This document shows, in pieces, positions 4,585 through 46,375 of a stretch of 64,000 bases of DNA (position 1 is the stretch's first letter; every line of letters begins with the position of its first letter). The notes beneath the pieces are model-generated. The model searched no databases. It was not told where the DNA came from and saw nothing but the letters and a program-made list of their open reading frames with translations. The position numbers and the translations under genes were made by a program. The DNA comes from Lentisphaerota bacterium (GTDB taxonomy: Bacteria; Verrucomicrobiota; Kiritimatiellia; UBA8416; VGWI01), in the NCBI GenBank assembly GCA_016873655.1, contig VGWI01000003.1:1737-65736 (forward strand), written 5' to 3'.

Positions 4585-5339
4585 CTGTCTTGCGCCTCCC
4601 AGAACCCGTACACTTGAGGCGGCTCATGCCGCCCGCTCCTGGAAACCTCAACATAGTCGCGACCGCCTGTCGCGATCCATTCCCTTTCGATCCTGCCCGT
4701 CTCAAGCCCGCCCGGCGCTATCGTCCGGCGCGCGCCAAGCTTGTAGAGAGTGCCGGGCTCATCAGTCAACTGAACGGGCGCCATGTGAAACCGCACGCCC
4801 TCCGCAAAAGCGAGAGGAAAATGACGGCTGTCGAGCCAGCGGATCGTCATGTCCTCGACATGAACAACCAGCTCGCCGCGGAAGTCGCGCGTGGCCATGG
4901 AAAGCTGGACGACGCTGCGCAGGGGCATGTCGCCTAGAACGGCCAACCCGCCGCCGCTCCACTGGCCGGTCTCGCTGCGCACGAGATTCAGCTTCACACG
5001 GCCGGTGGACACGCTCCACACCGGCGGCCATTGCGCCATCCAGACCGGTCCGCAGGCCAGTTCGCCGGCGGAGAGCTCCGGTTCACCCCCGGGCAGCTTC
5101 GCCTTCGACCGGACATCAGAGAGCACCACGTCGCACGGCCAGGCCAGGCTCATTGCCCCGATCTCCAGCTCGATCCCGGCAATCGCGGAAATGCGCCGCG
5201 CCGCCCAGCCCTTTGCCCAGCCGGTCCGCGCAACATAAAACGCGCCGGCCGCGGCAAGCAGCAACATCAGCACCAGCATCAGAAGGCAGCCCCTCGCTCC
5301 GCTCCGCCGCTTCGCCCCGTCTTCCTTGCCGGCTCCCAT
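4581..5339 (-). CDS. Hypothetical membrane-anchored protein (single N-terminal TM, about 200-aa periplasmic domain)
   Basis: 252-aa ORF with TM LLMLVLMLLLAAAGAFYV. Translationally coupled on both sides (TGATG / ATGA overlaps) inside the LPS operon. No recognizable family. Confidence 0.5.
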   Translation of the reverse strand: MGAGKEDGAKRRSGARGCLLMLVLMLLLAAAGAFYVARTGWAKGWAARRISAIAGIELEIGAMSLAWPCDVVLSDVRSKAKLPGGEPELSAGELACGPVWMAQWPPVWSVSTGRVKLNLVRSETGQWSGGGLAVLGDMPLRSVVQLSMATRDFRGELVVHVEDMTIRWLDSRHFPLAFAEGVRFHMAPVQLTDEPGTLYKLGARRTIAPGGLETGRIEREWIATGGRDYVEVSRSGRHEPPQVYGFWEAQDR

Positions 5340-6031
5340 CAGGCGCCTCCCCGGCGTCCGAACAGCGCCGTTCCCACCCTCACCATCGTGGCGCCTTCCT
5401 CGATCGCGACACCGTAGTCATGCGACATACCCATGGAAATATCCGGGAACAGGCACCCCGACTCTCCGGACCACCTGTCGCGCAACTCGCGCAGGGCGCG
5501 GAAGTGCGGGCGGACATCGGCCGGATCGGGCGTGAACGGCGGAATCGTCATGAACCCGGCAAGATTCACGTTCATCAACCCGTTCGCCGCCTCGATCACG
5601 CCCGGCACATCCGATGGCGCAAGCCCGAACTTCGCCGACTCGCCGGAAACGTTAACCTCCAGAAGTATCTTCTTCACTTCCCCGGCGGCTTCGGCCGCGG
5701 CGTTTACCGCCTGGAGAACACGGACCGAGTCTATGCTGTGGATGACGTCAAAAAGCATGACCGCCTCGCGGGCCTTGTTGGTCTGGAGATGGCCGATCAT
5801 GTGCCAGCGTAGACCGGACGGTGAAAGCGGTATCTTCTGCCTCGCCTCCTGAACGCGGCTCTCGCCGAAGACGGTGAGGCCGGCGCCGGCCGCCTCACGG
5901 ATGGATTCCGGCCCGAACCCCTTGGCAACGGCTATGAGCTGGACCTCGCCCGGATCACGCCCGGCCCGCGCGCACGCGGCGCCGATGCCGGAACGCACCT
6001 CCTCGAGCCTGCTTTCAAACGTGTCGTTCAT
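5339..6031 (-). CDS. yggS: YggS-family pyridoxal-phosphate homeostasis protein
   Basis: Alanine-racemase N-domain-like sequence (LIAVAKGF...HMIGHLQTNK...FDVIHSID...LSMGMSHDY). Start at the internal ATG 6031. Confidence 0.8.
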   Translation of the reverse strand: MNDTFESRLEEVRSGIGAACARAGRDPGEVQLIAVAKGFGPESIREAAGAGLTVFGESRVQEARQKIPLSPSGLRWHMIGHLQTNKAREAVMLFDVIHSIDSVRVLQAVNAAAEAAGEVKKILLEVNVSGESAKFGLAPSDVPGVIEAANGLMNVNLAGFMTIPPFTPDPADVRPHFRALRELRDRWSGESGCLFPDISMGMSHDYGVAIEEGATMVRVGTALFGRRGGA

Positions 6032-6047
6032 GCGATCACCGCAACAA

Positions 6048-6650
6048 TCATGCTTCCTGCCTGCCCCGGATCGCGCGCGCAAGCGTAACCGGGTCCGAAT
6101 AACCTATCCCGCTCCCGGCCGGCAGCCCGTAGGCAAGCCGGGTCACCTTCACCGGCTTGGCACGGAGAAACTCGGTCACGAAACTGGCTGTCGCGTCGCC
6201 TTCGACGTCGGTGTCCAGCGCCAGCAGCACCTCGCGCACCCCGCCGGCGTCAACCCTGTCCACCAGCGCGCGCATCCGCAGGTCCCGCGGCCCCACCCCG
6301 CGCATCGGCGAGATCGTGCCCATCAGCGCATGGTAACGCCCGCGGAACACTCCGGCCTCCTCCATCTTCATTATGTCGCCGGGTTCCTCGACAACGCACA
6401 GGATGGTGTCGTCGCGCGCGGGGTCGGTGCAGAGACGGCACGGGTCGCGGTCGCGCGAAGTCACGTTGCCGCAGCGGCCGCACTGAATCAGGCAGGCGGC
6501 GGCGTCCTGCATCGCGGAAACGAGATCTTTCAGGAGCCCGCCCGGGTCGCGGACAAGGCTCAAGGCCATCCGCTCCGCCGTTCGCCGCCCCACGCCGGGC
6601 AGGCGCGAAAGGCACGCGGTAAGACTGTCAAGTTGGGCCAAGGCGCTCAT
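6048..6650 (-). CDS. recR: Recombination protein RecR
   Basis: 200 aa with the C4 zinc finger CxxC...CxxC (CGRCGNVTSRDRDPCRLC) and a Toprim region. Follows ybaB as in the dnaX-ybaB-recR operon. Confidence 0.9.
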   Translation of the reverse strand: MSALAQLDSLTACLSRLPGVGRRTAERMALSLVRDPGGLLKDLVSAMQDAAACLIQCGRCGNVTSRDRDPCRLCTDPARDDTILCVVEEPGDIMKMEEAGVFRGRYHALMGTISPMRGVGPRDLRMRALVDRVDAGGVREVLLALDTDVEGDATASFVTEFLRAKPVKVTRLAYGLPAGSGIGYSDPVTLARAIRGRQEA

Positions 6651-6679
6651 TCACGGCTCCCGCCGGCGCGGCCGCGGCA

Positions 6680-6997
6680 TCAGCCGCCGCCAAGAAGATC
6701 GGACAGCCCACCCATGCCGCCGGTCATCTTGCCCATCTCGGTGCCGGCCTGCTTCTTTGCGTTGCGCAGCGCGTTGTTCACGGCCGTCACTATCTGCGAT
6801 TCGAGCCGCTCCTTGCGCGCCTGGTCCAGGCCCTGCGGGTCGATGTTCACGCTCTTCATGGTCATGTCGCCCAGCATCGTCACCCGGACAAAGCCGCTCG
6901 CCCCTTCGACGCTTACCTTCTGAAGTTCCTTCTGTATCCTCTTCACCTGCTGCCGCATCGCGGCGGCCTGCTTCAGCATCTTGAACATGTCAGCCAT
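6680..6997 (-). CDS. ybaB: Nucleoid-associated protein YbaB/EbfC
   Basis: 105 aa, MADMFKMLKQAAAMRQQVKRIQKEL...TMLGDMT... typical of the YbaB family. Confidence 0.9.
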   Translation of the reverse strand: MADMFKMLKQAAAMRQQVKRIQKELQKVSVEGASGFVRVTMLGDMTMKSVNIDPQGLDQARKERLESQIVTAVNNALRNAKKQAGTEMGKMTGGMGGLSDLLGGG

Positions 6998-7045
6998 GGC
7001 TCTGTCACTCCGTTCTGAACCGTCCCGTCATCTTCAGCGATGACA

Positions 7046-8788
7046 CTATATCCCGCGCACTTCCGACACCGTTCCATCAAACATCTCGGCCACACGCTTC
7101 ACGGCCGGATCGCGCGCCCATTCCTGGGGGGTCTTCTTCGATTCCCGCGCGCCTTCCGACGGTCGCTTCCCATCATCCGCCCGGGCGCCGCCGGCTTCAC
7201 CGCACGCTGCCTCGATCTCGGCCTCGTCCTTGAGCACGAAAGAAAGCTTCACGCACCGGCCCAGGACATCAGAAATCGCCTTCTCGAGAGCAAGACGGTT
7301 GCGGGGCACATCAAACCGCGCCGGTTCCTCGGCGAACTCGCGGTCGAAACCTATCGTCACCGTGTCGCCGGAGACGGAAATCGGGGCGGCATCCGCGAGA
7401 GCGTTCCGCAAGGATACCGCACACATCGCCGCCGCCGCGGCGACATCGCCCCACCGCTGCCGCAGAAGACGGCATTCCCGTTCACCAGTCCCGGCCGCCG
7501 CCGCCTCGGCGCTCGGCTCCAGCCCGGTCGGCGCGGCGCCGGCCATCGGCAGTTCGGGCTCGCGCACCGCCTGCGGGCGGGACGGAGAAGACGCGAACCG
7601 GACCGGCGCAGCCGACTGCGGCGCGGTTCCTTCACCAGCCCCGCCGAGTTCCTCGCGCAACGCCTGGACCTTCGCGAGCACTTCATCGAGCGAAACCGAT
7701 CTCGCCGCCCGCGCTGAGCGGATCAGCGCCATCTCGAGCATCGTGCGTCTGGACAGGGCCGTCCGCATGCCCTCCTCCGCCTCTGAAAGGATTTCGGCGA
7801 CACGCACTATGCGGGCGGGCGAAACTTCGCCCGATTGCTCCATCAGGGCTTCGCGGTCCTCGGCCATGATGCCCAGCTCCGCCGTGTCGCCCTCGATGTA
7901 ACGGCAAACAAGCAGGTCGCGGAAGCAGCCGAGCAGTTCGATCAGCAGCCGCTGCATGTCCTTGCCGGCCTCATCCATGTCCTTCACGGTCCGGATCAGG
8001 CCCGGTATGTCGCCGGAAAGCACCTGGCCGGCAAGGCCCGTCACCACGCGGCGGGAGACAAGCCCGAAAACCGAAAGAACGTCCTGCTCCTCTATCTTCC
8101 GGCCGCAGAACGAAACAAGCTGGTCAAGCGCCGATTCCGCGTCACGCAAACCGCCCTCGGCTCCACGCGCAACAGCCAGCAGGGCGTCAGACGTAACCTC
8201 AAAACCTTCCTTGTCCGCGATCAGCTTCAGTCGCTCCACGATCAGGGGCAGCGAAATGCGCCGAAGGTCAAACCTCTGGCACCGCGAGAGTATCGTCGCC
8301 GGCACCTTGTCCGCCTCGGTGGTCGCAAAGATGAACTTCACGTGCCTCGGAGGCTCTTCAATGGTCTTGAGCAGGGCGTTGAAGGCACCCATGCTGAGCA
8401 TGTGCACCTCGTCTATGACGTAGATCCGGTAAGGGCCGCGCGCAGGAGCGTACTTGACGGCGTCGCGAAGATCGCGCACCTGGTCCACGCCGTTGTTTGA
8501 GGCACCGTCTATCTCCTGCACGTCAAGACTCCTGCCTTCCATGATCTCGATGCAGGAGTCGCACTTGTCGCAGGGCTTGTGACCCTTCCTCTTGCCGCAA
8601 TTGAGCGTCTTGGCAAAGATGCGGGCGAGTGACGTCTTTCCCGTGCCGCGCGGGCCCACGAACAGGTATGCGTGGGCAAGCCGGTCCGCGTCGATGGCGT
8701 TGCGAAGCGTGCGGGTGACGTGCTCCTGCCCGACGACATCGTCGAACTGCTGCGGACGCCACTTCCGCGCTATCACTTCGTAGGCCAT
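7046..8788 (-). CDS. dnaX: DNA polymerase III subunit gamma/tau
   Basis: AAA+ motifs (GPRGTGKTS, DEVHML, SRC) and a Zn module CDKCDSC. True start is probably the ATG at 8788 (MAYEVIARKWRP), two codons inside the GTG of the listed ORF. Confidence 0.9.
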   Translation of the reverse strand: MAYEVIARKWRPQQFDDVVGQEHVTRTLRNAIDADRLAHAYLFVGPRGTGKTSLARIFAKTLNCGKRKGHKPCDKCDSCIEIMEGRSLDVQEIDGASNNGVDQVRDLRDAVKYAPARGPYRIYVIDEVHMLSMGAFNALLKTIEEPPRHVKFIFATTEADKVPATILSRCQRFDLRRISLPLIVERLKLIADKEGFEVTSDALLAVARGAEGGLRDAESALDQLVSFCGRKIEEQDVLSVFGLVSRRVVTGLAGQVLSGDIPGLIRTVKDMDEAGKDMQRLLIELLGCFRDLLVCRYIEGDTAELGIMAEDREALMEQSGEVSPARIVRVAEILSEAEEGMRTALSRRTMLEMALIRSARAARSVSLDEVLAKVQALREELGGAGEGTAPQSAAPVRFASSPSRPQAVREPELPMAGAAPTGLEPSAEAAAAGTGERECRLLRQRWGDVAAAAAMCAVSLRNALADAAPISVSGDTVTIGFDREFAEEPARFDVPRNRLALEKAISDVLGRCVKLSFVLKDEAEIEAACGEAGGARADDGKRPSEGARESKKTPQEWARDPAVKRVAEMFDGTVSEVRGI

Positions 8789-34992: not shown

Positions 34993-35182
34993 CATCACTG
35001 TCATCCCGTAGGCAACGTTTCACGATCACAAAACCCCGCGTTTGCTGATGTTTTAGAATAGTCTGCGGGATTGTGATTCTTGAACTGTCCTTCGTAATCC
35101 TGATCGTAATCGTAATCATAGTCCTCTCTTTGGCAGATGATTACGATTACGATCAGGATTACGATTACGCGATGCCTGTGGG
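34993..35182. mobile_element. MITE-like non-autonomous element, copy 2 (about 190 bp) flanked by a 14-bp direct repeat ATGCCGTGAAACGG (34979-34992 and 35183-35196)
   Basis: Same termini (CACTGTCATCCCGTAGG...CCTGTGGG) as copy 1. Internal stem extended to a perfect 26 bp (GTAATCCTGATCGTAATCGTAATCAT / ATGATTACGATTACGATCAGGATTAC) with compensatory changes relative to copy 1. Lies about 200 bp upstream of wzm. Confidence 0.6.
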
Positions 35183-35379
35183 ATGCCGTGAAACGGAATC
35201 AGCCATTGCCCTGCAAGCAAAAAGGGGGACATGCCCCCCGGCGATTCGGGCGCGGCCCGGAATTGGGCTTTCAGACGGAATGGGAAAATGTTTCCATCGC
35301 TCACGCGCTCTTTCCGGCAGGGACCCGGCAAAGACTCAACGGCGCCTTGTTTCGACAATCTTACCGCGGATGTTTCACT

Positions 35380-36243
35380 ATGTGCGAACACAGCCCGCTC
35401 GCCGGAAAAACCGGATGCCCGGAAACAGCGCAGACCGTCTTCGATTCGGCGCACCGCCAGCCGCCGGCAATCGAAGAGCTTGTCCAGCTATGGCGCTACC
35501 GCGACCTCGTGGCGCAGCTCGTCATCCGCAACATCAAGGCCCGCTACAAGCGTTCCGTGCTTGGAGTCGTTTGGACGATGCTGAATCCGCTGCTGATGAT
35601 GGCGGTGCTCTCGCTCGTGCTGCACGGGCTCTTCGGGCTCCGCGTGCCGAACTACTCCGCGTACCTGCTTGCCGGCCTTCTGCTCTGGCAGTTCTTCGCC
35701 CAGGCAACCCTGGCCAGCACAAGCGAGATCGTGTGGGGCGCAAGCCTCGTCAAGCGCATCTACGTGCCGCGGACGGCATTCGCCGTAGCCGCCGTCGGGA
35801 ACGGACTGGTCAACCTGGCTCTCTCGCTTGTCCCGCTTGCGCTGATAATGGCCGTCCTCGGAATCCCGGTCGGCAGAGCGGCGCTGACGATCCCGGTTTC
35901 TGTCCTGCTGACGGCAATGTTCACGCTCGGCGTGGCTCTGTTTGTTTCGTCGGTGGCAGTCTATTTCGCCGACTTCATGGAGATATACCAGGTTGCCCTG
36001 ACAGCGTGGATGTACCTGACACCCGTGATCTATCCGATAGACATCGTCCCGGAACGTTACCGATGGCTTTTCAAGTTGAACCCCATGTGCCACCTCGTCG
36101 ACATCTTCCGCGCGCCGATACACATGAACGCCCTGCCGGCCATGGAGTCCCTCTGCGCCGCTGCCGGCGCCTCCGTGCTGGTCCTGCTGCTTGGCTGGCT
36201 GTTCTTCACACGGAATTCCGATGAAATCGCCTACCGCGCCTGA
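35380..36243 (+). CDS. wzm: ABC-2 type polysaccharide export permease (Wzm/KpsM/TagG family)
   Basis: Six predicted TM helices; conserved N-terminal QLWRYRDLVAQLVIRNIKARYKRSVLGVVW typical of ABC-2 glycan exporters. The listed ORFs start within the MITE and translate the repeat (MITITIRITI...); the real start is ATG 35380. Confidence 0.8.
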   Translation: MCEHSPLAGKTGCPETAQTVFDSAHRQPPAIEELVQLWRYRDLVAQLVIRNIKARYKRSVLGVVWTMLNPLLMMAVLSLVLHGLFGLRVPNYSAYLLAGLLLWQFFAQATLASTSEIVWGASLVKRIYVPRTAFAVAAVGNGLVNLALSLVPLALIMAVLGIPVGRAALTIPVSVLLTAMFTLGVALFVSSVAVYFADFMEIYQVALTAWMYLTPVIYPIDIVPERYRWLFKLNPMCHLVDIFRAPIHMNALPAMESLCAAAGASVLVLLLGWLFFTRNSDEIAYRA

Positions 36244-37006
36244 CAACCGCAACACAACCGAGACAGAGACGCTGAGCCCGGACACGGCGATCAGGATTGA
36301 CCGCGTTACCGTCCGCTACCGCCTCCCGCACGAACGAATCCACACGTTCAAGGAATACGTGATCCGCATGCTGCGCGGACAACTCAGGATGATTGACCAC
36401 CTCGCGCTGCGGGACGTAAGCATGGAAGTCCGCCGGGGCGAGGTCCTCGGAATAGTCGGGCGCAACGGCGCCGGCAAGAGCACGCTGCTGAAACTGGCGG
36501 CGCGGGTGCTCCAGCCGACCGAAGGGCGGATCCGGATAAGGGGCCGTGTGGCGCCGCTGCTGGACGTCGGCGGCGGATTCCATCCCGAGCTGACCGGGCA
36601 CGAAAACATCTTTCTGAACGGCGCGCTGCTGGGACTCTCCCGCGCGGAGATAACCCGCCGCCTCGACAGCATCGTGGAGTTCGCCGAGCTTCGGGACTGC
36701 ATCGAATCGCCCCTGCGCACGTATTCCAGCGGCATGATCGCCCGCCTGGGCTTTGCGATAGCCACGGACGTCGAGCCGGACATCCTGCTGATAGACGAAA
36801 TCCTCGCGGTCGGCGACGAGAAGTTCCGCGCGAAATGCGCCGGACGCATACGGCGCTTTCGCGACGCCGGCACCACCATCGTTCTGGTTTCGCACGATAT
36901 GCACATGGTCCGCGAACTGTGCGGGCGCGCAGTCTGGCTGAACAAGGGCCGCGTCGAGGGCGAGGGCACGGCAGACGAGATCGTGACACTCTACAGCCGC
37001 GCCTGA
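36221..37006 (+). CDS. wzt: Polysaccharide export ABC transporter ATP-binding protein (Wzt/KpsT/TagH family)
   Basis: Walker A GRNGAGKST, signature YSSGMIARLGF, Walker B ILLIDE. No C-terminal carbohydrate-binding domain (about 260 aa). Overlaps wzm by 23 nt. Confidence 0.85.
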   Translation: MKSPTAPDNRNTTETETLSPDTAIRIDRVTVRYRLPHERIHTFKEYVIRMLRGQLRMIDHLALRDVSMEVRRGEVLGIVGRNGAGKSTLLKLAARVLQPTEGRIRIRGRVAPLLDVGGGFHPELTGHENIFLNGALLGLSRAEITRRLDSIVEFAELRDCIESPLRTYSSGMIARLGFAIATDVEPDILLIDEILAVGDEKFRAKCAGRIRRFRDAGTTIVLVSHDMHMVRELCGRAVWLNKGRVEGEGTADEIVTLYSRA

Positions 37007-37075: not shown

Positions 37076-39964
37076 ATGGACGATGACGGAAACATCGAAT
37101 CGCACTACGACCGGATATGGGACTCCGATCCGGTCCCGCCGTACGTCGAGTCCCTGCTGCCGGCCATGGCCGGGCTGGGCCTGCGCCACTCTTCAACGGT
37201 GCTGGACGTGGGTTGCGGAAACGGTGTGCTGGGCCGGCGGCTGATGGACCTTTACGGCTGCCGGATTTACGGCACGGACATCTCGCCGGTTGCGCTGAAA
37301 GCCGCGTCGGCACGCGGCTACGCCGGCGTCGCAAGGACAAGCGCCGACCCGCTGGCCCGGTTCCGGCAGCCGTTCCCCGGCCAGCGGTTCGACGTTGTGG
37401 TGTTGAGCGCGGTCCTTGAGCACGTCTTCGACCCGGCTGCATTGATTGCAGCGTCCCATTCGGCCTTGAAGCCAGGCGGGTTCATCGTTGTTCTGACGCC
37501 CAACGTCACGTGGTTCCTGAACCGCCTTCTGTTCCTGCTTGGCATGTGGGAACACCCTCTCCTGGGAGGAACGGACGGCCACATACGTTACCTGAACCGG
37601 CGCATGCTGCAGAAGCTGGTGACAGACGCCGGCTTCGGCGGCCTTGACTGGTCATTCTCTTCCATGGCCGCCCTGCCGCCGGGCCAGAACCTGCACGTCC
37701 GCGGCCGCCGCGTCCCGCTCGTCCGCCGCCTCGCGGGACGGCGCGCGCGTGTTCGCCCCTCGCTCTGGGCGGAGAACTTCATCCTTCTCGCGCGGAAACC
37801 GGTATCCGACCCGGACACCTCCCAATGGGCGGACCTGGCCGGCAAGACGGACCTCATGCCGTTGAAGATTCTGCACATCGCCGCAACACCGAACGGAGCC
37901 AACTGGATGTTCGAAATCACGCGCGACTTGCGATCAAGGGGCCACGATGCCGCCGCGCTGATCTCGCCCGGCCAGGGCGATCTTGCGCCCAAGCTCCAGC
38001 GCGCCGGCGTGCCGTATCACGTGTTCGACCTGGACGTCATGAGCGTCAACGACTACGCAGGCATCGTTCGCCGTGTACTGAAGCTTGCCCGGTTCCTCAG
38101 GGAACATCGCTTCGACGTGGTACACTATCACCTCTTCACTTCCGTTATCCTCGGCCGCGTCGCGGCCTACATCGCCGATGTTCCGCTGCGCTTCTCCATG
38201 TGCACGGGGCCGTTCTACCTGGAAGCGCCGGCAACGCGCGAGGTGGACCGCCGCACGTTCTGGATGGACACGAAGGTCATCCCGTCCTGCGAGTTCAGCC
38301 GCAAGCTATACCTGGAGATGGGGCTCCCCGCCAGACGGATGGAACGCATCTTCTACGGCGCTGACCCGTCCGCATTCGATCCGGCCAAGGCTGACGGGGG
38401 CAAACTCAGGCGCGAGTACGGAATCCCGGACAACTCCCCGATCGTCAGCATGGTTGCCTATTTCTACAGCCGCCTCCCGTACGGCAAGTGGACGCCGCCG
38501 CAGCTCCAGGGCCGCGCTGTGAAGGGACACGACACAGTGCTTGAGGCCGCGAAACTCGTTCTGCAACGCAATCCGCGCGCCAGGTTTCTCCTGGTCGGCA
38601 GGGGATGGGAAGCCGGGGGCGAGGAATTCATGCTGGAGATGAAATCGCTGGCGAAGTCGCTGGGCATAGACCATGCAGTGATCTTCACCGGCATGCGGCG
38701 CGACATTCCCGATGTGCTGGCCGGCTCCGATGTCACCATCCAGTCCTCGCGCAGCGAGAACCTCGGCGGAAGCATCGAGGCGCTGTTGATGGCGCGGCCC
38801 ACCGTGGCGTCGGCCGTCGGCGGACTGGTTGATGCCGTTCGCCACGAGGAAACAGGCCTGCTCGTCCCTATGGACGATGCGCCGGCGCTGGCGGCGGCGA
38901 TTCTCCGTCTTCTGGACAACCCTGAATGGGCGGCCACACTGGGGAGAAACGGGCGCGCGTTGATGCTGCGGGACTTCACCCTGTCCAGAACAGTTGACGA
39001 TCTGGATCAACTCTACCGGACGGAGGCGGGAAAGATCATGCAACGCGAACGGCCTTCGGCGCCTGGCCCGGCCGCCCGCCGCTACCGGCCGTCGGTCAGC
39101 CTGCTGCGCCTGATGTGTGTCGCCGTCCGCCTGGGCTTCTTTGCCTTGTGTTTCGATCTGCCGGACATCGCCGCGGGCGCGATGCGCCGGAGAGTGGCAG
39201 GCCTCAAGCGGCCCGCCGCGCGCAACGCCGCCGCGCTGTTCGCGGGGCTGGGCCGGGATCTGATTCACTTGACGCCGCTTCTGCTCCCGGCGGCAGCGAT
39301 CTCCATCTTCCTGACCGGAACGGCGCGCATGGTCTTCCTGGCCGCCCTGTTGTCGTCCGCGCTCTTCGTGCGGCTGAAATACGCCGGCCCGGCCGTCAGC
39401 CTGGTTCGGCTTGCCACAAAGCGCGTTTTCGATCTGCTGATCGTTGCGGTCATCGCCGCGGCCGGCTCGCCGCTGTGGATCGCCGCCGTTGTCGCCGCGA
39501 AACGTCTGCCGGGCCCCGCGCTCGTGCGCTCGCCGAGAATCGGACGATTCGGGATTGTCTTTGACATGTTCACGCTGCGGAGCCGGCTGCCGGACTCCGG
39601 CGCAGCCTTCTTCGCCCGGCTGCTCCGTCGCATCCACGCGTGGAACGCCCCCGCCATCATCAACGTGGCGCGCGGCGAAATGAGCATCGTCGGCCCCCGC
39701 CCGGTTTCACCCGAACCGGCTGCCGGTTCATCCGGAATCCGGCGCAAACCGACAGCCAAGCCCGGCCTGGTTGGCTGGGCTGAAGTCAGGATGCCCGCCG
39801 CTTCGGCAGAGGAAGAGATGCGCCTCGATCTGTGGTACGAGGAACATCAGTCCTTCTGGCTGGACGCATGGACCGTGTTGAAGGCGGCGGCAGGCTGCGT
39901 CATGCGCGGGAGCGCCGCGTCGGCAGCCGACCATTGCGGGCCAGGACGCGAGCCGCCGCAATGA
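37076..39964 (+). CDS. Three-domain fusion: class-I SAM methyltransferase + GT4 (GT-B) glycosyltransferase + degenerate bacterial sugar-transferase (PGT, PF02397-like) membrane domain
   Basis: N-terminal VLDVGCGNGVLG (MT motif I). Middle domain with the GT4 EX7E motif (ENLGGSIEALLMARPTVASAVGGL). C-terminal domain with TM, VFDLLIVAV...SIVGPRP...PGLVGWAEV but lacking the catalytic Asp-Glu dyad (LDELP replaced by HAWNAP) and the KFRTM motif. Confidence 0.75.
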   Translation: MDDDGNIESHYDRIWDSDPVPPYVESLLPAMAGLGLRHSSTVLDVGCGNGVLGRRLMDLYGCRIYGTDISPVALKAASARGYAGVARTSADPLARFRQPFPGQRFDVVVLSAVLEHVFDPAALIAASHSALKPGGFIVVLTPNVTWFLNRLLFLLGMWEHPLLGGTDGHIRYLNRRMLQKLVTDAGFGGLDWSFSSMAALPPGQNLHVRGRRVPLVRRLAGRRARVRPSLWAENFILLARKPVSDPDTSQWADLAGKTDLMPLKILHIAATPNGANWMFEITRDLRSRGHDAAALISPGQGDLAPKLQRAGVPYHVFDLDVMSVNDYAGIVRRVLKLARFLREHRFDVVHYHLFTSVILGRVAAYIADVPLRFSMCTGPFYLEAPATREVDRRTFWMDTKVIPSCEFSRKLYLEMGLPARRMERIFYGADPSAFDPAKADGGKLRREYGIPDNSPIVSMVAYFYSRLPYGKWTPPQLQGRAVKGHDTVLEAAKLVLQRNPRARFLLVGRGWEAGGEEFMLEMKSLAKSLGIDHAVIFTGMRRDIPDVLAGSDVTIQSSRSENLGGSIEALLMARPTVASAVGGLVDAVRHEETGLLVPMDDAPALAAAILRLLDNPEWAATLGRNGRALMLRDFTLSRTVDDLDQLYRTEAGKIMQRERPSAPGPAARRYRPSVSLLRLMCVAVRLGFFALCFDLPDIAAGAMRRRVAGLKRPAARNAAALFAGLGRDLIHLTPLLLPAAAISIFLTGTARMVFLAALLSSALFVRLKYAGPAVSLVRLATKRVFDLLIVAVIAAAGSPLWIAAVVAAKRLPGPALVRSPRIGRFGIVFDMFTLRSRLPDSGAAFFARLLRRIHAWNAPAIINVARGEMSIVGPRPVSPEPAAGSSGIRRKPTAKPGLVGWAEVRMPAASAEEEMRLDLWYEEHQSFWLDAWTVLKAAAGCVMRGSAASAADHCGPGREPPQ

Positions 39965-41633
39965 CGGCGGGCATGAGAAGACACACGTTCGTGAAGGCGT
40001 ACAGCAGGTGCTGTCCCAGCGCCGTGATCAGGCATGGAACCAGATAGAAGAGCCACAACCTTCTGAAGTCTGACGCTTTCGACAAACGGAATGCGGCTGC
40101 AATGAGAGCCGCAAGCGCCACGGCCGCCGGAATCAGCCCGTACTCGAACGCCAGATCGAGGTACGTATTGTGCATGTGTGCGTAGTACAGCTTCGTTTCA
40201 CGTTGCGCATGCTTGTGGAAACGCGCCCAGGTGCCAGCCCCGCCGCCGCGTACGATATACCCGTCCGCGATCTTCCCCGCGCCCAGCGTCCACATATCGG
40301 CCCGCGCCGGCTCGAATCGCGCCAGCCACGGTTTCGCGCGCGCCACAAGACGCGTTGCGCCTGATCTGTCACCGCGCTCCACGGGCTTCCCTGCGAATTC
40401 CACGGCCGACCAGGCCGCCAGCGCGACAAGGCATGCAATCCGGACGCGGCGATAGCGGACCGGACCGCGTCCGGTCAGCGACCCGGACAAACCTTCCGCC
40501 GCGCGCAGAATCAGCCAGGCTGCCGGCAGCACGACCATGACCGCCCCGAGCACAAGCAGGGCTTTCGGGATGAACGTGCCAACAGCCAGCCTTGCCACGG
40601 ACAACACGTTCGGCAGCCCAACCACCGACGCCGTGTCCAGAAACCACAGAGTTGAAAGAACGACACCTGCGGCAAACAACAGGGCCGCCACGCGCCATGG
40701 CCGGGAGACCCGGCGCCGCGTGCCGGCCATGCCGCTCTGCAACCCGGCGCAGCGTGCCGGCCGGCAGAACATAAGCGCGACACCCGCCGCCGCGGCATAG
40801 AAAGCAATCTGGAGAATGAACAGCGCCGGCGGAAGCAAACCGCACAGCCCGGCAAACACACGCCTCGCACGGGTCATCGCGGCGAGAGCAAACCAGGGCA
40901 GCGCAAGCGCAACCAGGAAGGCAAAATAGCTGAGATTGTAACCGGCGCCGTGAAAGAGAAGTCCGGCAAGCCGCGCGTGATTGGTCGTGCCAAGGAAATG
41001 ATGCGGGCCCTGCCACGGCAGCAACGCGCTCCCGAAAGCGGCCAGCATGGCCGTGACTCCCGCCGCAAACGCGGCGGCCCAGATCCGCCGCGACGAGAAG
41101 AAGGCCGGGAAACACACGACACCGGCGCAGATTGCCGCCGCAAGCGAACGCTGGACACACTGACGCAAAGGGAAGACGTACCAGCTTGCCCGGGCCGAAA
41201 GGAAATGCCCCACGGCCTCACGCGGCGGCCGGCCGAGAATATCCAGGCACAGTGCGCCCCCTTCCCTCGGCCAGGAAAGGAACAGCACGGCCGCTGCCGC
41301 CAGCGCAACCGGAAACAGCGCCTTGGGGTTGCGTCTGCCGGCTGCAAGAAGCCGCAACAGCAGAACCAGCGCCACAAGCTCCTGCCACCATGCCCTGTCG
41401 CTGCCCGAATCGCACATGAAGGCCGGGCACGTCATCACCAGCAGAGGCAGGCATGTGGCCGGACGGACGAGGACCATGCCGCAAAGAAGCCATCCCAGCG
41501 CAATCCACTCGAGCGGCCCGCTCCGGAACGGCAACACGATCTGGCCGAAGAGAAGAAGCAATACCCATCCGCCGAGGACAACCCTGTCCGCCGTTCCTCC
41601 CCGAACACGAGTCCATCCCGCCACCAGGTTCAC
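39900..41633 (-). CDS. Wzy_C-domain polytopic membrane protein (O-antigen ligase WaaL / O-oligosaccharyltransferase PglL family)
   Basis: 577 aa with more than 10 TM segments. Conserved Wzy_C motif region AHMHNTYLDLAFEYGLIPAAVALAAL (compare H-x-H-N-x-Y-L of WaaL/PglL). Last gene of the pglC-pglD-pglE-pglF-like operon. Confidence 0.7.
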   Translation of the reverse strand: MNLVAGWTRVRGGTADRVVLGGWVLLLLFGQIVLPFRSGPLEWIALGWLLCGMVLVRPATCLPLLVMTCPAFMCDSGSDRAWWQELVALVLLLRLLAAGRRNPKALFPVALAAAAVLFLSWPREGGALCLDILGRPPREAVGHFLSARASWYVFPLRQCVQRSLAAAICAGVVCFPAFFSSRRIWAAAFAAGVTAMLAAFGSALLPWQGPHHFLGTTNHARLAGLLFHGAGYNLSYFAFLVALALPWFALAAMTRARRVFAGLCGLLPPALFILQIAFYAAAAGVALMFCRPARCAGLQSGMAGTRRRVSRPWRVAALLFAAGVVLSTLWFLDTASVVGLPNVLSVARLAVGTFIPKALLVLGAVMVVLPAAWLILRAAEGLSGSLTGRGPVRYRRVRIACLVALAAWSAVEFAGKPVERGDRSGATRLVARAKPWLARFEPARADMWTLGAGKIADGYIVRGGGAGTWARFHKHAQRETKLYYAHMHNTYLDLAFEYGLIPAAVALAALIAAAFRLSKASDFRRLWLFYLVPCLITALGQHLLYAFTNVCLLMPAVIAAARVLARNGRLPTRRSRA

Positions 41634-43546
41634 AGCACCGGCACATTCTGCTGCACGGCGTACTCCGGCAGTATCTCGACCAGTTTCCGCCTGATTCCGG
41701 CGGCGTCGTGGCGGCCGGCAATCTCAGCCAGTTCTTCTATCGCGCCCATCAACAGTCCCGAATCCGGCTGAGAACCGGCTTCGCGCTTCAGGACAAGAAT
41801 GCCCTTGTGCGAGGTCGGGGCAACTCCTTCCCCTTCGGTGATGAGTTCCTCGTGAAGCTTCTCGCCCGGCCGCAGGCCCGTGAAGACGATGCTCCCTTCC
41901 CTGTCCGGATCCATGCCGGACAGGCGGAGCAGGTCGCGCGCCATGGCGGCAATCCGCACCGGCTGCCCCATGTCCAGCACAAATGTCTCCCCGCCGGTCC
42001 CGAGCCCGCCAGCCTGCAGGATGAGCCGGGCCGCCTCGGGTATCGACATGAAGTACCTCGTCACTTCCGGATGCGTGACCGTGACCGGCCCGCCGCTCCG
42101 GATCTGCTCCCTGAAGATGGGGACAACCGAACCGGACGACCCGACCACGTTCCCGAAACGCACGGCCATGAAGACCGTGCCGTTCCCCGCCATGGCATGC
42201 ATCGCCAGTTCGGCCACGCGCTTTGAGGCGCCCATCACGTTCGTCGGTCTTACCGCCTTGTCGGTGGAAACCAGAACGAACCTTGCGGCCCCGTGCTTCG
42301 TCGCCGCTCGCATGGTCGCGCAACTTCCGAGGATGTTGTTGGTGACGGCCTCCCATGGGTTCGCTTCGAGCATCGGCACGTGCTTGTAGGCGGCGGCATG
42401 GAATACGACCGAGGGCTTGTAGCGCTCGAAGACCCGTTCCATCAGGCATTCATCGGCCACACTGCCGAGGATGGCCACGTGGCGCGGGAACCGCAGCCGG
42501 GTCTTGAGCTGCAGCTCCATCGCAAACAGGTTCGCCTCCGAGGAGTCGAGCAACACCAGCAAGCCTGGCCGGAACTCTATGATCTGCCTGCACAACTCGG
42601 AACCGATGGACCCGCCGCAGCCCGTGACCAGGACCGATTTCCCTTCGATGTAGCCGCGGATGCTTTCCACGTCCAGTTGCGCCGGTTCGCGGCCAAGGAG
42701 GTCCTCATAGTCCACATCGCGCAGATCCTTAAGGCCCGCCTTTCCTCCGATGAGTTCACCGATGCCGGGCACGATCTTCAGCTCGACGCGCCGGCCTTCG
42801 CAGTCCTGTACGATTCTCCGCATGGTCGCGGCGGAAACCCCGCTGATGGTCACCAGCACCTTCCTGACGCCGTGCCGGTCTATGCAGCGGCCGAGGGCGT
42901 CAACCGTGCCAATGACGGGAATGCCGTGAACCGAGCGCCCCCGCTTGCCCGGGTCATCGTCCACAAACCCCACCACCGAGCACGCCAGTTTCGGATTCTC
43001 CTGTATCTCCTGCAGTATCCGCTCCCCGGCAATGCCGGCGCCCACTATCATGGTCCGTACACCGGAACGGAATTGCCCGCGCCAGTTCAGAACCCGCGGC
43101 AGCGCCATCGCCTGGAGCCCGCTTCGATGCAGGAACACTCCCCGTATGCCTGTTCGCAGCGCACCGGTGAGAAGAAACGATATCAGGCCGTCCAGGACGA
43201 ACACGCCGCGCGACAGTCCGCTTGTCCCCTGGAACCACGCCAGCGTGAGGACAACGGCCAGCGACGCCACCGTCAGGGCCTGAAACAGACGGACAATGTC
43301 CTTGAGCCCCGTGTAGCGCCACATTCCGCGGTACAACCCGAACGCCGACAGGCACAGCGCTTTCACGGGCAACACGAGGCACAGCAACGGCGCTATCTGC
43401 CGGCGATAGTATGCCGGTATCGCAAAGTCGAAGCGTATCGCGTAGGCCAGCAACATCGACAACGCCATCAGCAAGGCGTCGGCGGCCAGCATGAGGTACA
43501 GCTTCGGGTTCCCGAACCGCGCGGCCATCGTCCTCATCGCCGTCAT
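41630..43546 (-). CDS. Membrane-bound UDP-GlcNAc 4,6-dehydratase (CapD/PglF/WbpM family)
   Basis: 638 aa: four N-terminal TM helices, two Rossmann regions (IVGAGIAGE..., VLVTGCGGSIGSEL) and the SDR catalytic YKHV...K. Confidence 0.85.
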   Translation of the reverse strand: MTAMRTMAARFGNPKLYLMLAADALLMALSMLLAYAIRFDFAIPAYYRRQIAPLLCLVLPVKALCLSAFGLYRGMWRYTGLKDIVRLFQALTVASLAVVLTLAWFQGTSGLSRGVFVLDGLISFLLTGALRTGIRGVFLHRSGLQAMALPRVLNWRGQFRSGVRTMIVGAGIAGERILQEIQENPKLACSVVGFVDDDPGKRGRSVHGIPVIGTVDALGRCIDRHGVRKVLVTISGVSAATMRRIVQDCEGRRVELKIVPGIGELIGGKAGLKDLRDVDYEDLLGREPAQLDVESIRGYIEGKSVLVTGCGGSIGSELCRQIIEFRPGLLVLLDSSEANLFAMELQLKTRLRFPRHVAILGSVADECLMERVFERYKPSVVFHAAAYKHVPMLEANPWEAVTNNILGSCATMRAATKHGAARFVLVSTDKAVRPTNVMGASKRVAELAMHAMAGNGTVFMAVRFGNVVGSSGSVVPIFREQIRSGGPVTVTHPEVTRYFMSIPEAARLILQAGGLGTGGETFVLDMGQPVRIAAMARDLLRLSGMDPDREGSIVFTGLRPGEKLHEELITEGEGVAPTSHKGILVLKREAGSQPDSGLLMGAIEELAEIAGRHDAAGIRRKLVEILPEYAVQQNVPVL

Positions 43547-44679
43547 CCGACTTCCATCGCGCGCCGAACAGCGCCTATGACGCGATCCTGATCCGCGTCA
43601 GTCATGCCCGTTCCCGAGGGCAGGCAAAGGCCCAGCCTGAACAGCCGCTCGCTCACCGAACCGCCGTACATCCTGCAACCGGCGAACACCGGCTGCATGT
43701 GCATCGGTTTCCATACGGGGCGCGCCTCGATGTCTTCCTTCTCGAGCGCCAGCCGCACGGCTTCCCGGTCCACCGACGCAACCGCGGGCTCTATCAGGAT
43801 CACCGTCAACCACCGGTTCGACCGCCCCCACGCCGCCTCGGGCATGAACGTCACGCCGGCGAGGCCTGAAAGGGCCTCAACGTAGCGGTCAAATATCTCT
43901 CTCTTCCGCCTGACGCGCTGGTCGAGAACACGCAACTGGCCGCGGCCGATTGCGGCAACAATGTTGCTCATCCGGTAGTTGTAGCCGATTTCAGCGTGCT
44001 CATAGTGCGGGTAGTTCTCGCGCGCCTGCTGCGAGAGCTTGCGCGCGTGCGCGATCAACTTCCCGTCTTCGGACGCGAGAAGTCCTCCGCCGGACGTGGT
44101 GATGATTTTGTTCCCGTTGAAGGAAAAGACCGCCATTTTGGCGCCGTTGCCTGCATGCCTGCCCCGGGACTCCGCGCCCATAGCCTCGGCGGCATCGGCT
44201 ATGACGGGTATGCCATGCGGCAGGCACGTTTCCGTCAGGCGCTCGTAGTCCGCGCACTGACCGTACAGATCGGTGGGAATCACCGCCCTGGGCCTGATCC
44301 CGGCGCGGATGCAGTCATCCACCACTTCAGCCAGCAGTCCAGGATCCATCGTCCAGCTTCCCTCGTCGGCATCAACAAAGACGGGCGTCGCGCCCTGAAA
44401 GACGGCAGGACTTACGCTGCCGATGAACGTGAGGGATGACGCGATCACGGTGTCGCCGGCCTGCACGCCGAGAACGCGGAGGGCAAGATGCATCGCAGCT
44501 GTCCCGCTGTTCACGGCCAGGCAGTGCGGCAGGCCCACGCGTTCCGCAAACTCCTTCTCGAACGCGTCAACCATCGGGCCCAGCGGCGCGATGTAGTTCG
44601 AGGCGAACGCTTCGCGCACCAGGTCCAGTTCCTGCCCGGACATGTGGGGCGGGGAAAGAAAGAGCCGTCCTGCGCTCAA
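43543..44679 (-). CDS. DegT/DnrJ/EryC1/StrS-family PLP-dependent sugar aminotransferase (PglE-like)
   Basis: 378 aa; ...FSFNGNKIITTSGGG... PLP-lysine region and overall DegT architecture. Confidence 0.85.
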   Translation of the reverse strand: MSAGRLFLSPPHMSGQELDLVREAFASNYIAPLGPMVDAFEKEFAERVGLPHCLAVNSGTAAMHLALRVLGVQAGDTVIASSLTFIGSVSPAVFQGATPVFVDADEGSWTMDPGLLAEVVDDCIRAGIRPRAVIPTDLYGQCADYERLTETCLPHGIPVIADAAEAMGAESRGRHAGNGAKMAVFSFNGNKIITTSGGGLLASEDGKLIAHARKLSQQARENYPHYEHAEIGYNYRMSNIVAAIGRGQLRVLDQRVRRKREIFDRYVEALSGLAGVTFMPEAAWGRSNRWLTVILIEPAVASVDREAVRLALEKEDIEARPVWKPMHMQPVFAGCRMYGGSVSERLFRLGLCLPSGTGMTDADQDRVIGAVRRAMEVG

Positions 44680-45083
44680 GAGCCGTTTCCCTTCCTCTTC
44701 ACTATTCTGGCCGGAACCCCGAAGGCAACGCAGTCGGCCGGGATGTCACTGTTGACGAAACTCATCGCCCCGATGACGGCATTCTCGCCAACCGTCACAC
44801 CGGGCATGATGACGCTGTGCGCCCCGATCCGGCAATTTCTCTTCAGAACAACGGGCCCATGCTTGTCGTCTATCGTGGAAACGGAGTAGATGGAACAGTG
44901 CGACCCTATCTGTACGTCGTCTTCAATGGCCACGCCGTGTTTTGCGTTGATGTAGGTGAAGGCGCCAATGTCGGTCCGGGTCCCCATCTGGAGCCCGTTC
45001 TTGTGCTGCACCAGCCAGTTGTACCTGGTGAGCTTGCCGTCCTCGATCACCGGCTTCTCCCATCGCTCGAATCGCTGTTCCAT
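44676..45083 (-). CDS. Left-handed beta-helix (hexapeptide-repeat) sugar N-acetyltransferase (PglD/WbbJ-like)
   Basis: Hexapeptide repeats (IGSHCSIYSV, IGAHSVIMPGVTVGENAVIGAMSFV). ATG 45083 overlaps the pglC-like stop (TGATG). Confidence 0.7.
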   Translation of the reverse strand: MEQRFERWEKPVIEDGKLTRYNWLVQHKNGLQMGTRTDIGAFTYINAKHGVAIEDDVQIGSHCSIYSVSTIDDKHGPVVLKRNCRIGAHSVIMPGVTVGENAVIGAMSFVNSDIPADCVAFGVPARIVKRKGNGS

Positions 45084-45724
45084 CACTGCTTCCCCGTTTG
45101 AGAACCGCCGGTTCCAGTGAACCGGGGCATTGTCGCACAGCCTTTCGCCACTATGCCGACGCCGGACAACACGCGCCAGACGGTCATGCACAGAATCCTC
45201 GCATCCAGCAGGAGCGAATGGTGATCAACATACCAGACATCAAGACGGAAACGTTCTTCCCAGTCCAGCGCGTTCCGCCCGTTTACCTGCGCCCATCCCG
45301 TCAGGCCCGGCCTGACCTCGTGCCTCCGCGCCTGTTCGGCCGAGTAGAGCGGCAGGTATTCCATGAGCAGCGGACGCGGCCCCACAAGACTCATGTCGCC
45401 CCTGAGCACGTTCACGACCTCCGGCAACTCGTCAAGGCTCGTCGCCCGCATGAAGCGGCCAAACCCGGTCATGCGCTCCGCGTCGGACACAGCCCCCTTC
45501 TCGCCGCCAGCGTCCGTCATGGTCCTGAACTTGTAAAGCGTGAACGGCCTTCCGGCCAGTCCCGCTCTGGTCTGCTTGAACAACGCCGGACGCCCAAGCA
45601 TGGCCCAGACCAGCGCCGCAAGCGCCAGCCCCAGCGGCCAGAACAGAAGAATGATGATCGCGGCGGCAAGCACGTCCACGGCGCGCTTGAGCCGTCCGCC
45701 GTATCTTCCGCACGCACGCTTCAT
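45083..45724 (-). CDS. Undecaprenyl-phosphate sugar phosphotransferase (small monotopic PGT, PglC/WcaJ C-terminal type) with intact catalytic dyad
   Basis: 213 aa: re-entrant helix LAAAIIILLFWPLGLALAALVW, KFRTM, SLDELPEVVNVLRGDMSLVGPRP, PGLTGWAQV. Confidence 0.85.
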   Translation of the reverse strand: MKRACGRYGGRLKRAVDVLAAAIIILLFWPLGLALAALVWAMLGRPALFKQTRAGLAGRPFTLYKFRTMTDAGGEKGAVSDAERMTGFGRFMRATSLDELPEVVNVLRGDMSLVGPRPLLMEYLPLYSAEQARRHEVRPGLTGWAQVNGRNALDWEERFRLDVWYVDHHSLLLDARILCMTVWRVLSGVGIVAKGCATMPRFTGTGGSQTGKQ

Positions 45725-45928
45725 TGCCCCTGCCTCCCCGCCAACGCTGACCGATCATATTGGAACACGCGCCCCCGCGTACACCACGCAATCACTTTCC
45801 TGAACGGCAGAACACCCGGAACAGCAGGACCGCCCGGCCGGGCAGGGAGCCGGTTGCATTGCGGGGCGTCAACGTGTATGTTGCGCGCCGATTCACGCGA
45901 AGTTGTGCCGGCAGGGAGATTCACCGCG

Positions 45929-46375
45929 ATGGAACAGACCGCAGTGCAGGCAATGAAAGCCAGGCGCCTGAGACCGGATGCGCGCCTCCCGGAATACGCG
46001 CACCCTGGCGACGCCGGCATGGACCTCTTTGCCGCCGAGAGGCTCGACCTTGCCCCCGGCGAACGCCGTCTGGCCCGGACCGGCGTGGCGATAGAACTGC
46101 CGCGGGGCACGGAGGGACAGGTGCGCCCGCGCAGCGGGCTCGCACTGAAGCACGGGGTGACCGTCCTTAACGCGCCCGGAACGATTGACGAGGGATACCG
46201 CGGCGAGGTGGGCGTGATTCTCGTGAACCACGGCGGCGAGCCCTACACCGTGGAACCGGGCATGAAGATCGCGCAGCTCGTGGTTCAGCCCGTCCTGCGC
46301 GTGCAGGTGCAGGAAACATCGGACCTGTCCGACACCAGCCGCGGCGCTGGCGGGTTCGGCTCAACTGGATATTGA
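45929..46375 (+). CDS. dut: dUTP diphosphatase
   Basis: 148 aa; dUTPase motifs AGMDL, RSGLALKHGV, GTIDEGYRGEV, and a C-terminal RGAGGFGSTG motif V. Confidence 0.85.
   Translation: MEQTAVQAMKARRLRPDARLPEYAHPGDAGMDLFAAERLDLAPGERRLARTGVAIELPRGTEGQVRPRSGLALKHGVTVLNAPGTIDEGYRGEVGVILVNHGGEPYTVEPGMKIAQLVVQPVLRVQVQETSDLSDTSRGAGGFGSTGY

Follow-up and report, generated by a model that had tools for sequence, protein, structure and literature searches.

Most bacterial surface-glycan pathways are started by monotopic phosphoglycosyl transferases (PGTs), enzymes that are being explored as drug targets and whose active site is treated as invariant. Here we describe a protein that carries a PGT-fold domain predicted to be catalytically dead. 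It is encoded in a 64,000-nucleotide stretch of DNA from a Lentisphaerota bacterium (contig VGWI01000003.1, positions 1,737 to 65,736 of the forward strand, assembly GCA_016873655.1), which is called the window below. A single open reading frame (ORF) at 37076-39964 joins an S-adenosylmethionine (SAM) methyltransferase, a glycosyltransferase of family 4 (GT4) and, at its C-terminus, a domain with the fold of the small PGT, PglC.

In monotopic PGTs an aspartate is both the covalent nucleophile that accepts the phosphosugar and a ligand of Mg2+, and Lys59 is essential (PMC10541605). Small PGTs specific for N,N'-diacetylbacillosamine (diNAcBac) also have an aromatic box (Y118, Y122, W150, F154, F197), a GLLLP loop and an extended C-terminus (PMC10186338). 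In both characterised diNAcBac pathways, i.e., those of Campylobacter (PglC/PglA) and Bacillus subtilis (EpsL/EpsD), the step after the PGT is carried out by a GT4, PglA or EpsD, acting on undecaprenyl diphosphate-linked diNAcBac (Und-PP-diNAcBac) (PMC10653937). PGTs fused to other pathway enzymes form a known class, BiPGT (O'Toole, Imperiali and Allen 2021, summarised in PMC11626204), represented by Neisseria PglB and by glycosyltransferase-PGT fusions. Methyltransferases and glycosyltransferases also come together in chain terminators such as Escherichia coli O9a WbdD, Klebsiella pneumoniae O7 ORF6 (methyltransferase-kinase-coiled coil-2xGT2) and O12 WbbB; the characterised terminators involve a coiled-coil ruler, a carbohydrate-binding module on Wzt and separate polymerase modules (PMC11231755).

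The protein in the window resembles the BiPGT class, as summarised in that source, in that a PglC-fold domain is fused to a pathway enzyme in the company of sugar-nucleotide genes. It differs in that the fused PGT domain lacks Asp93, Glu94, Lys59 and the aromatic box (PglC numbering), in that a methyltransferase has been added, and in that priming would fall to a separate PglC. Because those residues are missing, the fused domain could not perform the reaction that defines a PGT. The parts of the fusion are as follows.

37076-39964, plus strand: full ORF, comprising methyltransferase, GT4, membrane linker and pseudo-PGT, 962 residues (translation, Pfam, NCBI protein P0001, orthologs)
37076-37825, plus strand: class I SAM methyltransferase domain, residues 1-250, with VLDVGCGNG from residue 42 (Pfam Methyltransf_23/11/12/25)
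37841-39040, plus strand: GT4 domain (GT-B fold, retaining), residues 256-655, with E561-X6-E568 (Pfam, AlphaFold2 (AF2), Foldseek)
39041-39400, plus strand: hydrophobic linker, residues 656-775, with segments 673-695 and 728-770 and an Arg/Lys-rich loop between them (Kyte-Doolittle scan)
39401-39910, plus strand: pseudo-PGT domain, residues 776-945 (Pfam Bac_transf, Foldseek, residue map)
39572-39574, plus strand: codon of T833, the counterpart of the catalytically essential Lys59 (alignment; essentiality from PMC10541605)
39641-39646, plus strand: codons of W856-N857, where PglC has the catalytic dyad Asp93-Glu94 (gapless alignment)

The frame is uninterrupted, and its start ATG at 37076 agrees with an NCBI protein from a Lentisphaerae metagenome-assembled genome (MAG) (P0001, 962 residues, 100% identity, labelled only "methyltransferase domain-containing protein") and with the N-termini of the orthologs. 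The methyltransferase, GT4 and Bac_transf domains all matched Pfam above the curated cut-offs, as expected from a preliminary description of this DNA that had proposed the three-domain architecture; the strings that it quoted (KRVFDLL, MSIVGPRP, PGLVGWAEV and HAWNAP) are all found in the protein. The chance that three separate genes have here been joined through an assembly or frameshift error, which that description had named as a way in which it might be wrong, is negligible. We found no point in its support. The identical 962-residue protein is present on three contigs from several sources, and a search for the full fusion returned three orthologs with 50-55% identity (P0002, 957 residues; P0003, 904 residues; P0005, 912 residues and N-terminally cut), which come from independent metagenomes and have the same continuous architecture. 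The GC content at third codon positions (GC3) is high in all four segments of the ORF (0.78-0.87; 0.78 in the PGT-like segment). On these sequence comparisons the orthologs already refute an artefact.

The methyltransferase domain scored above the cut-offs of five Pfam methyltransferase models (Methyltransf_23, residues 34-187, 88.8 bits), and the SAM-binding GxGxG motif of class I enzymes is present as VLDVGCGNG (residues 42-50). Its best match in the PDB was 3cc8 (E = 1.5e-13), and its identity among orthologs is 59-74%. The GT4 domain, with 61-71% identity among orthologs, matched Glyco_trans_4_4 (residues 280-427), Glycos_transf_1 (residues 481-627) and Glyco_trans_1_4, and was modelled by AF2 with a pLDDT (predicted local distance difference test) of more than 90. 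The top Foldseek matches of this domain were HepE (4xsu), BshA and PglA (8dqd), with TM-scores (TMt) of 0.81-0.87; for PglA the value was 0.83, and its structures were also matched by sequence (E = 1e-14). An intact EX7E motif had been claimed for the GT4. Both acidic residues are indeed present, but their spacing is X6 (E561-X6-E568, SENLGGSIE, window 38756-38782), i.e., one residue shorter than E-X7-E, and this E/D-X6-E spacing (ENLGGTIE) is common to the whole GT4 subfamily (alignment A3).

In the AF2 model the end of the methyltransferase, near residue 250, abuts the start of the GT4, near residue 256. The sole long helices of the model (residues 666-809) are hydrophobic. The linker, whose helices were predicted at low confidence and which has just 23-33% identity among orthologs, would form an interfacial helix and a transmembrane hairpin. 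With segment 776-809 of the next domain, the hydrophobic segments 673-695 and 728-770 would make up a monotopic module beside a transmembrane hairpin.

The C-terminal domain matched Bac_transf (PF02397) over residues 782-938 with 91.3 bits against a cut-off of 27 (E = 6.8e-26). Its active-site positions were aligned with those of PglC (8g1n) and WbaP (8t53), using phmmer against the PDB, and with those of the window's own stand-alone PGT; MAFFT and hmmalign agreed. The phmmer alignment was gapless from the dyad through GPRP, and the spacing between these two elements is the same as in the stand-alone PglC of the window. The correspondence with PglC was:

Asp93: Trp856, lost
Glu94: Asn857, lost
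Lys59: Thr833, lost
aromatic box Tyr118, Tyr122, Trp150, Phe154: replaced or deleted, lost
Lys7, Arg8 and Asp11: K782, R783 and D786, kept
Ser23-Pro24 (helix break): S798-P799, kept
Arg88: R851, kept
Pro111-Arg112-Pro113 (PRP nucleotide-binding motif): P874-R875-P876, kept

Thus, the Asp-Glu dyad had been read correctly as lost (HAWNAP). A dyad that is present but shifted is excluded, because LLRRIHAWNAPAIIN contains no acidic residue. Loss of the KFRTM motif, also claimed earlier, was partial: in the corresponding TLRSR the Lys, Phe and Met are gone, but the Arg and a Ser/Thr remain. The C-terminal loop that bears Phe197 is also absent, so that with four mappable box positions lost and no Phe at the C-terminus the fused domain does not have the diNAcBac fingerprint. 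The fold signatures are retained, as the preliminary description had stated. A model of the C-terminal 308 residues superposed on almost all of PglC (8g1n/8e37; Foldseek TMt 0.72-0.76, 184-191 columns, E = 4e-10), and a re-entrant helix is indicated by K782, R783, D786 and S798-P799, by the hydrophobic segment 776-809, and by a helix over the same residues in the predicted models.

The dyad was intact in every ordinary PGT used as a control (28/28, 11/11, 83/83 and 119/119, about 240 domains). The set of 28 was the return of a search with the C-terminal 308 residues alone, which also gave the alignment depth and did not recover the known orthologs; that of 83 came from 80 metagenome loci found by a scan with a three-sequence alignment, all of them ordinary PGTs and reused here as a control.

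From the residues lost, we infer that the third domain is catalytically dead. It could instead still be an enzyme, either because non-canonical residues sustain some PGT activity or because it acts in a new way on polyprenyl-linked substrates, and the PRP motif and Arg88 kept in the window protein, the Asp and KFRT kept in P0003, and the conserved polar positions of a second clade described below are in keeping with this. However, Asp, Glu and Lys59 have all been replaced by non-equivalent residues, with no acidic residue nearby (PMC10541605), and the replacements at the dyad vary among orthologs (WN, HR, NG, DK), so that the methyltransferase clade shows no sign of a new, conserved active site. 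We regard continued catalysis as highly improbable.

The relatives of the fusion form a graded series.

P0008 (659 residues): GT4-PGT without a methyltransferase; dyad SWDELP; KFRTM and PRP present; C-terminus long and of the diNAcBac type
P0003 (904 residues): methyltransferase-GT4-PGT-like; LLDKLP at the dyad position, KFRT kept; encoded in locus L008, 1451-4165, plus strand
Window protein, P0002 and P0005: methyltransferase-GT4-PGT-like; WN, HR and NG, respectively, at the dyad position
P0006 (775 residues): methyltransferase-GT4 only; pseudo-domain absent

P0008 fits directly into the BiPGT class, as that class is summarised in PMC11626204, since its active site is intact. Its locus has the order Wzm-Wzt-[GT4-PGT]-PglD-PglE-PglF, with that GT4 as the sole glycosyltransferase and no separate PGT seen in the part viewed. 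In the P0003 locus the fusion is directly followed by a stand-alone PGT of 215 residues and then by PglD, so that a PglC-like PGT adjoins a degenerate fused domain there as in the window. The P0002 locus has the order Wzm-Wzt-fusion, and that of P0006 has Wzm/Wzt and PglD/E/F-like genes with further glycosyltransferases nearby. In a neighbour-joining tree of the GT4 domains P0008 was sister to the methyltransferase clade and P0006 was nested inside it, from which the direction of evolution would be from an intact GT4-PGT ancestor to a dead domain. The PRP motif is degraded in several relatives (GPRS, GPAP, GKRL, GTRL).

The pseudo-domain of P0003, with Lys in place of the dyad Glu, has 52% identity to the intact PGT domain of P0008, and its inactivation may be recent or only partial. 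A further apparent GT4-PGT fusion, L036, suggested by tblastn coverage, proved to be two genes encoding a 498-residue GT4 and a separate 449-residue PGT-containing protein.

How strongly the pseudo-domain is maintained bears on whether it has any function. Its identity among orthologs is 36-43%, compared with 54% for the pair of active stand-alone PGTs from the window and the P0003 locus. This lies below the GT4 (61-71%) and above the linker (23-33%), which argues for a relaxed, not a neutral, constraint. The domain might be a decaying vestige without a selected function, or at most a generic hydrophobic tail that is being lost: it is the least conserved of the folded domains, it has gone from P0006, its catalytic, sugar-binding and C-terminal elements have eroded differently in each ortholog, and many members of the family have just short hydrophobic C-terminal extensions. 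We nevertheless consider this unlikely. The frame is open with a GC3 of 0.78, and a neutrally evolving sequence could no longer be recognised at such divergence. There is little or no variation in KRxxD, the helix-breaking Pro, G..G.F, the NV..G.MS.VG core, PG..GW and WY, and a dead domain has also been retained in a separate clade, with conserved WWLP, N.PF and D.LY motifs of its own.

That clade emerged from a HMMER scan of 1.84 billion representatives, which returned many GT4 relatives with 40-49% identity. In eight of them (P0058, P0060, P0064, P0067, P0075, P0078, P0097 and P0112; 630-860 residues) the GT4 is joined to a PGT-like domain. There, DELP has been replaced, mostly by WWLP, KFRTM has gone, and PRP is often degraded. 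Their conserved positions are KRxxD, the helix Pro, G..N.PF, KPGxTGW.QL and D.LY, and the window protein shares with them a Trp at the Asp position. Seven of the eight (P0112 was left out of the tree), together with the fragmentary P0090, formed one clade in the GT4 tree, separate from the methyltransferase clade. A profile search with an alignment of the WWLP-type domains, using a word pre-filter, returned mostly ordinary small PGTs and one dead-type fragment, P0194 (KLQFLP). The dead domain might be a selected pseudoenzyme, a non-catalytic receptor for the undecaprenyl-(pyro)phosphate-linked primer that passes the product of PglC to the GT4 and the methyltransferase. It would then have had two or more origins, one in the methyltransferase clade and one in the WWLP clade. 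We put this forward tentatively, as a possibility that we would not bet on.

WWLP-type genes occur in polysaccharide clusters of an uncultured bacterium (L030, 9788-12046, plus strand) and of a Candidatus Obscuribacterales MAG (L044). The latter encodes two such proteins (3365-5530, plus strand, and 6056-7273, minus strand), and no intact PGT was found in its 11.5 kb.

Around the fusion, Wzm, Wzt and the fusion follow one another on the plus strand, with convergent minus-strand genes beyond.

35137-36243, plus strand: Wzm-type ABC-2 permease (Pfam ABC2_membrane; NCBIfam galactan export permease Wzm/RfbD, 84 bits)
36191-37006, plus strand: Wzt-type ATPase, 271 residues, nucleotide-binding domain only (Pfam ABC_tran, residues 73-204; NCBIfam Wzt/RfbE)
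39900-41633, minus strand: polytopic membrane protein of 577 residues, no family match (translation; motif HNTYLDLAFEYG)
41630-43546, minus strand: PglF-like membrane-bound sugar-nucleotide 4,6-dehydratase (Pfam Polysacc_synt_2, 368 bits, and CoA_binding_3)
43543-44679, minus strand: PglE/LegC-like aminotransferase (Pfam DegT_DnrJ_EryC1, 309 bits; NCBIfam LegC family, 341 bits)
44676-45191, minus strand: PglD-like hexapeptide acyltransferase (Pfam Hexapep; NCBIfam NeuD/PglB/VioB family)
45083-45724, minus strand: stand-alone small PGT (PglC-like), residues intact (Pfam Bac_transf, 206 bits; residue map)

The stand-alone PGT was correctly described as canonical and intact: it has KFRTM, SLDELP and GPRP (K65, D98-E99, P116-R117-P118), as well as the aromatic box (Y123, Y127, W155, F159) and a C-terminal ...ATMPRF... 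sequence. The locus resembles the Campylobacter and B. subtilis diNAcBac pathways in having PglF/E/D-type enzymes, a small PGT with an aromatic box, and a retaining GT4, matching PglA, for the Und-PP-sugar. It differs in that its GT4 shares a polypeptide with a methyltransferase and a dead PGT, in that export is by Wzm/Wzt and not by PglK or Wzx, and in that its PglC lacks the GLLLP loop. Across 79 genome loci, members of the GT4 subfamily were very often found beside Wzm/Wzt, a DegT aminotransferase, PglF and a small PGT, in different phyla.

The preliminary description had suggested a chain-terminating or capping module (methylation plus one glycosyl addition) that is held to the undecaprenyl-linked glycan by a carrier-binding pseudo-PGT and works with Wzm/Wzt. 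On such a model the protein would add one sugar and a methyl cap to the non-reducing end of a polymer made by others, and the cap would license export by Wzm/Wzt. Multidomain methyltransferase-glycosyltransferase terminators do exist in ABC-transporter pathways, K. pneumoniae O7 ORF6 and WbdD being examples (PMC11231755, PMC3482155), in which the methyltransferase is in the same polypeptide or complex as the glycosyltransferases and is encoded next to wzm/wzt; the fusion gene likewise lies directly 3' of wzm-wzt. However, neither the cluster nor the ORFs annotated over about 13-64 kb of the window yielded another glycosyltransferase, so that there is no polymerase to terminate. The Wzt of 271 residues has no carbohydrate-binding module, and no room for one with the fusion gene directly after it, whereas the module is present in all characterised terminated systems (PMC11231755); the Wzt proteins of related loci are equally short (256-264 residues). 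The AF2 model has no coiled-coil ruler between the methyltransferase and the GT4, nor does the fusion have a kinase, and in a PDB sequence search the methyltransferase did not match the WbdD structures. Finally, in P0008, the closest relative, the same GT4 occurs with no methyltransferase attached, and it is the sole glycosyltransferase of that locus. A capping role is therefore not supported, and we judge it distinctly unlikely. As the only glycosyltransferase in the cluster, with a Wzt that lacks a carbohydrate-binding module and without a coiled-coil ruler, the fusion would be the main glycan-building enzyme and not a terminator, and its GT4 must then build on the lipid-linked primer, since no polymer of another enzyme is available to be capped.

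A short Wzt with a nucleotide-binding domain only is also seen in the K. pneumoniae O2a-type (galactan) exporters that lack the module. Among the best NCBIfam matches of the window Wzt is the galactan export subunit Wzt/RfbE, with positions 43-241 of the 244 in the profile covered, but the scores are far under the family cut-offs (200 versus 400 bits) and the glycan chemistry is unrelated.

The reading that we favour, with a probability of roughly 60%, is that the protein is a membrane-held methyltransferase-GT4 glycan builder whose dead PGT domain is an anchoring relic of a bifunctional GT4-PGT, with PglC priming separately. It would be an inner-membrane enzyme with a live SAM methyltransferase, a live retaining GT4 and a dead C-terminal PglC-fold domain. 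The ancestor would have been a bifunctional GT4-PGT that initiated a glycan pathway of the bacillosamine type, dependent on an ABC exporter, a state that P0008 would still represent. A stand-alone PglC (45083-45724) would have made the fused PGT redundant for priming, and the fused domain would then have lost catalysis, with the disappearance of both dyad residues (the nucleophilic Asp and the Glu), of Lys59 and of the aromatic box on the sugar side, while keeping its re-entrant helix and structural core. In the pathway as we envisage it, the PglF/E/D-like enzymes would make a uridine diphosphate-2,4-diamino-2,4,6-trideoxyhexose derivative (diNAcBac-like), which PglC would transfer to undecaprenyl phosphate. 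The fused GT4 would extend this lipid-linked primer, as PglA and EpsD do; an Und-PP-diNAcBac acceptor is suggested by gene context, i.e., the adjacent PglF/E/D/C-like genes and the GT4-PGT fusion in P0008. The methyltransferase domain would then methylate the product, Wzm/Wzt would carry it across the membrane, and the adjacent 577-residue membrane protein may serve as its ligase. A short glycan is conceivable. The dead domain and the transmembrane hairpin would hold the GT4 and methyltransferase at the cytoplasmic face of the membrane, near the undecaprenyl diphosphate-linked acceptor, and the dead domain might also bind the lipid carrier.

Several points weigh against this account. The hydrophobic segments of the linker could anchor the protein unaided, and the pseudo-domain is dispensable in at least one lineage, since the ortholog P0006 lacks it. 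Loss of the sugar-recognition features weakens the claim that the dead domain specifically recognises diNAcBac-PP-undecaprenol, and the primer sugar can be called only "diNAcBac-like", because the window PglC lacks the GLLLP fingerprint. Retention of the PGT fold is partly built into the model, because the AF2 alignment of the pseudo-domain consisted mostly of real PGTs, and the GT4 tree was without support values. Other glycosyltransferases could be encoded elsewhere in the genome, and an unconventional catalytic mechanism of the C-terminal domain is conceivable.

We also considered a heterodimer in which the dead domain docks on PglC, and set it aside as speculation without precedent; in WbaP the dimer interface is formed by the domain of unknown function and a four-helix bundle, not by the catalytic domains (PMC10942596).

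Some features of the neighbouring genes deserve mention. The gene for the 577-residue membrane protein is convergent with the fusion, with an overlap of 65 nucleotides at the 3' end of the latter. The protein had no match in Pfam, NCBIfam or the PDB. Near its C-terminus it has a motif, YAHMHNTYLDLAFEYGLI (HNxYL...E.G-like), that resembles the O-antigen ligase/Wzy_C signature, and judged from this motif it may be a divergent ligase or oligosaccharyltransferase. Assignment as a WaaL-type ligase was rejected: there was no match in the three databases, the protein is dissimilar to a 626-residue protein that follows the ortholog in L001, and the motif is short. The longest-ORF calls of the PglD-like and PglC genes (44676-45191 and 45083-45724, both on the minus strand) overlap by 109 nucleotides, and the true start of the former probably lies further downstream. 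An ORF of 425 residues at 45098-46375 (plus strand) matched dUTPase in its last 130 residues only, and its 5' part overlaps PglC on the opposite strand; the actual dUTPase gene probably starts near 45.9 kb.

Other members of the GT4 subfamily occur in different arrangements. Proteins with two GT4 domains (about 860-900 residues), followed by Wzm-Wzt and with PglE/PglF-like genes nearby, were seen in Acidobacteriota/Thermoanaerobaculia (L009-L013, L038, L042, L048, L050, L057, L061, L064, L066 and L079); their tandem layout recalls the two-module polymerase WbdA. Members with a single GT4 were found in Alphaproteobacteria and, with 45-48% identity and near a small PGT, Wzm/Wzt and an aminotransferase, in several non-pneumophila Legionella/Fluoribacter genomes (L018, L025, L026, L027, L054 and L087).

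The domain combination had been put forward as one that is not a described family. PGT-glycosyltransferase fusions are in fact known as BiPGT, as summarised in PMC11626204; it is the inactivation of the PGT domain and the addition of a methyltransferase that have not been described. Our literature search, which did not cover the network study that defines the fusion classes, found no paper describing an inactive monotopic PGT domain. The fusion thus appears to be a pseudoenzyme relic, hitherto unreported, of a two-enzyme fusion that is itself known. Annotation based on profiles would name such proteins sugar transferases or PGTs, so that priming enzymes would be miscounted in metagenomes. The proteins P0008 (intact), P0003 (half degraded), the window protein (dyad lost) and P0006 (domain lost) offer a natural series for study. 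If the dead domain were indeed a selected, carrier-binding pseudoenzyme, it would be the first pseudoenzyme to be described in the monotopic PGT superfamily and would represent a new organisation of the early membrane steps in glycan assembly. The recurrence of nucleophile-less PGT folds fused to a glycosyltransferase suggests that, besides catalysis, this fold is put to another use at the membrane, for example in anchoring, in binding of the lipid carrier or in the hand-off of substrate.

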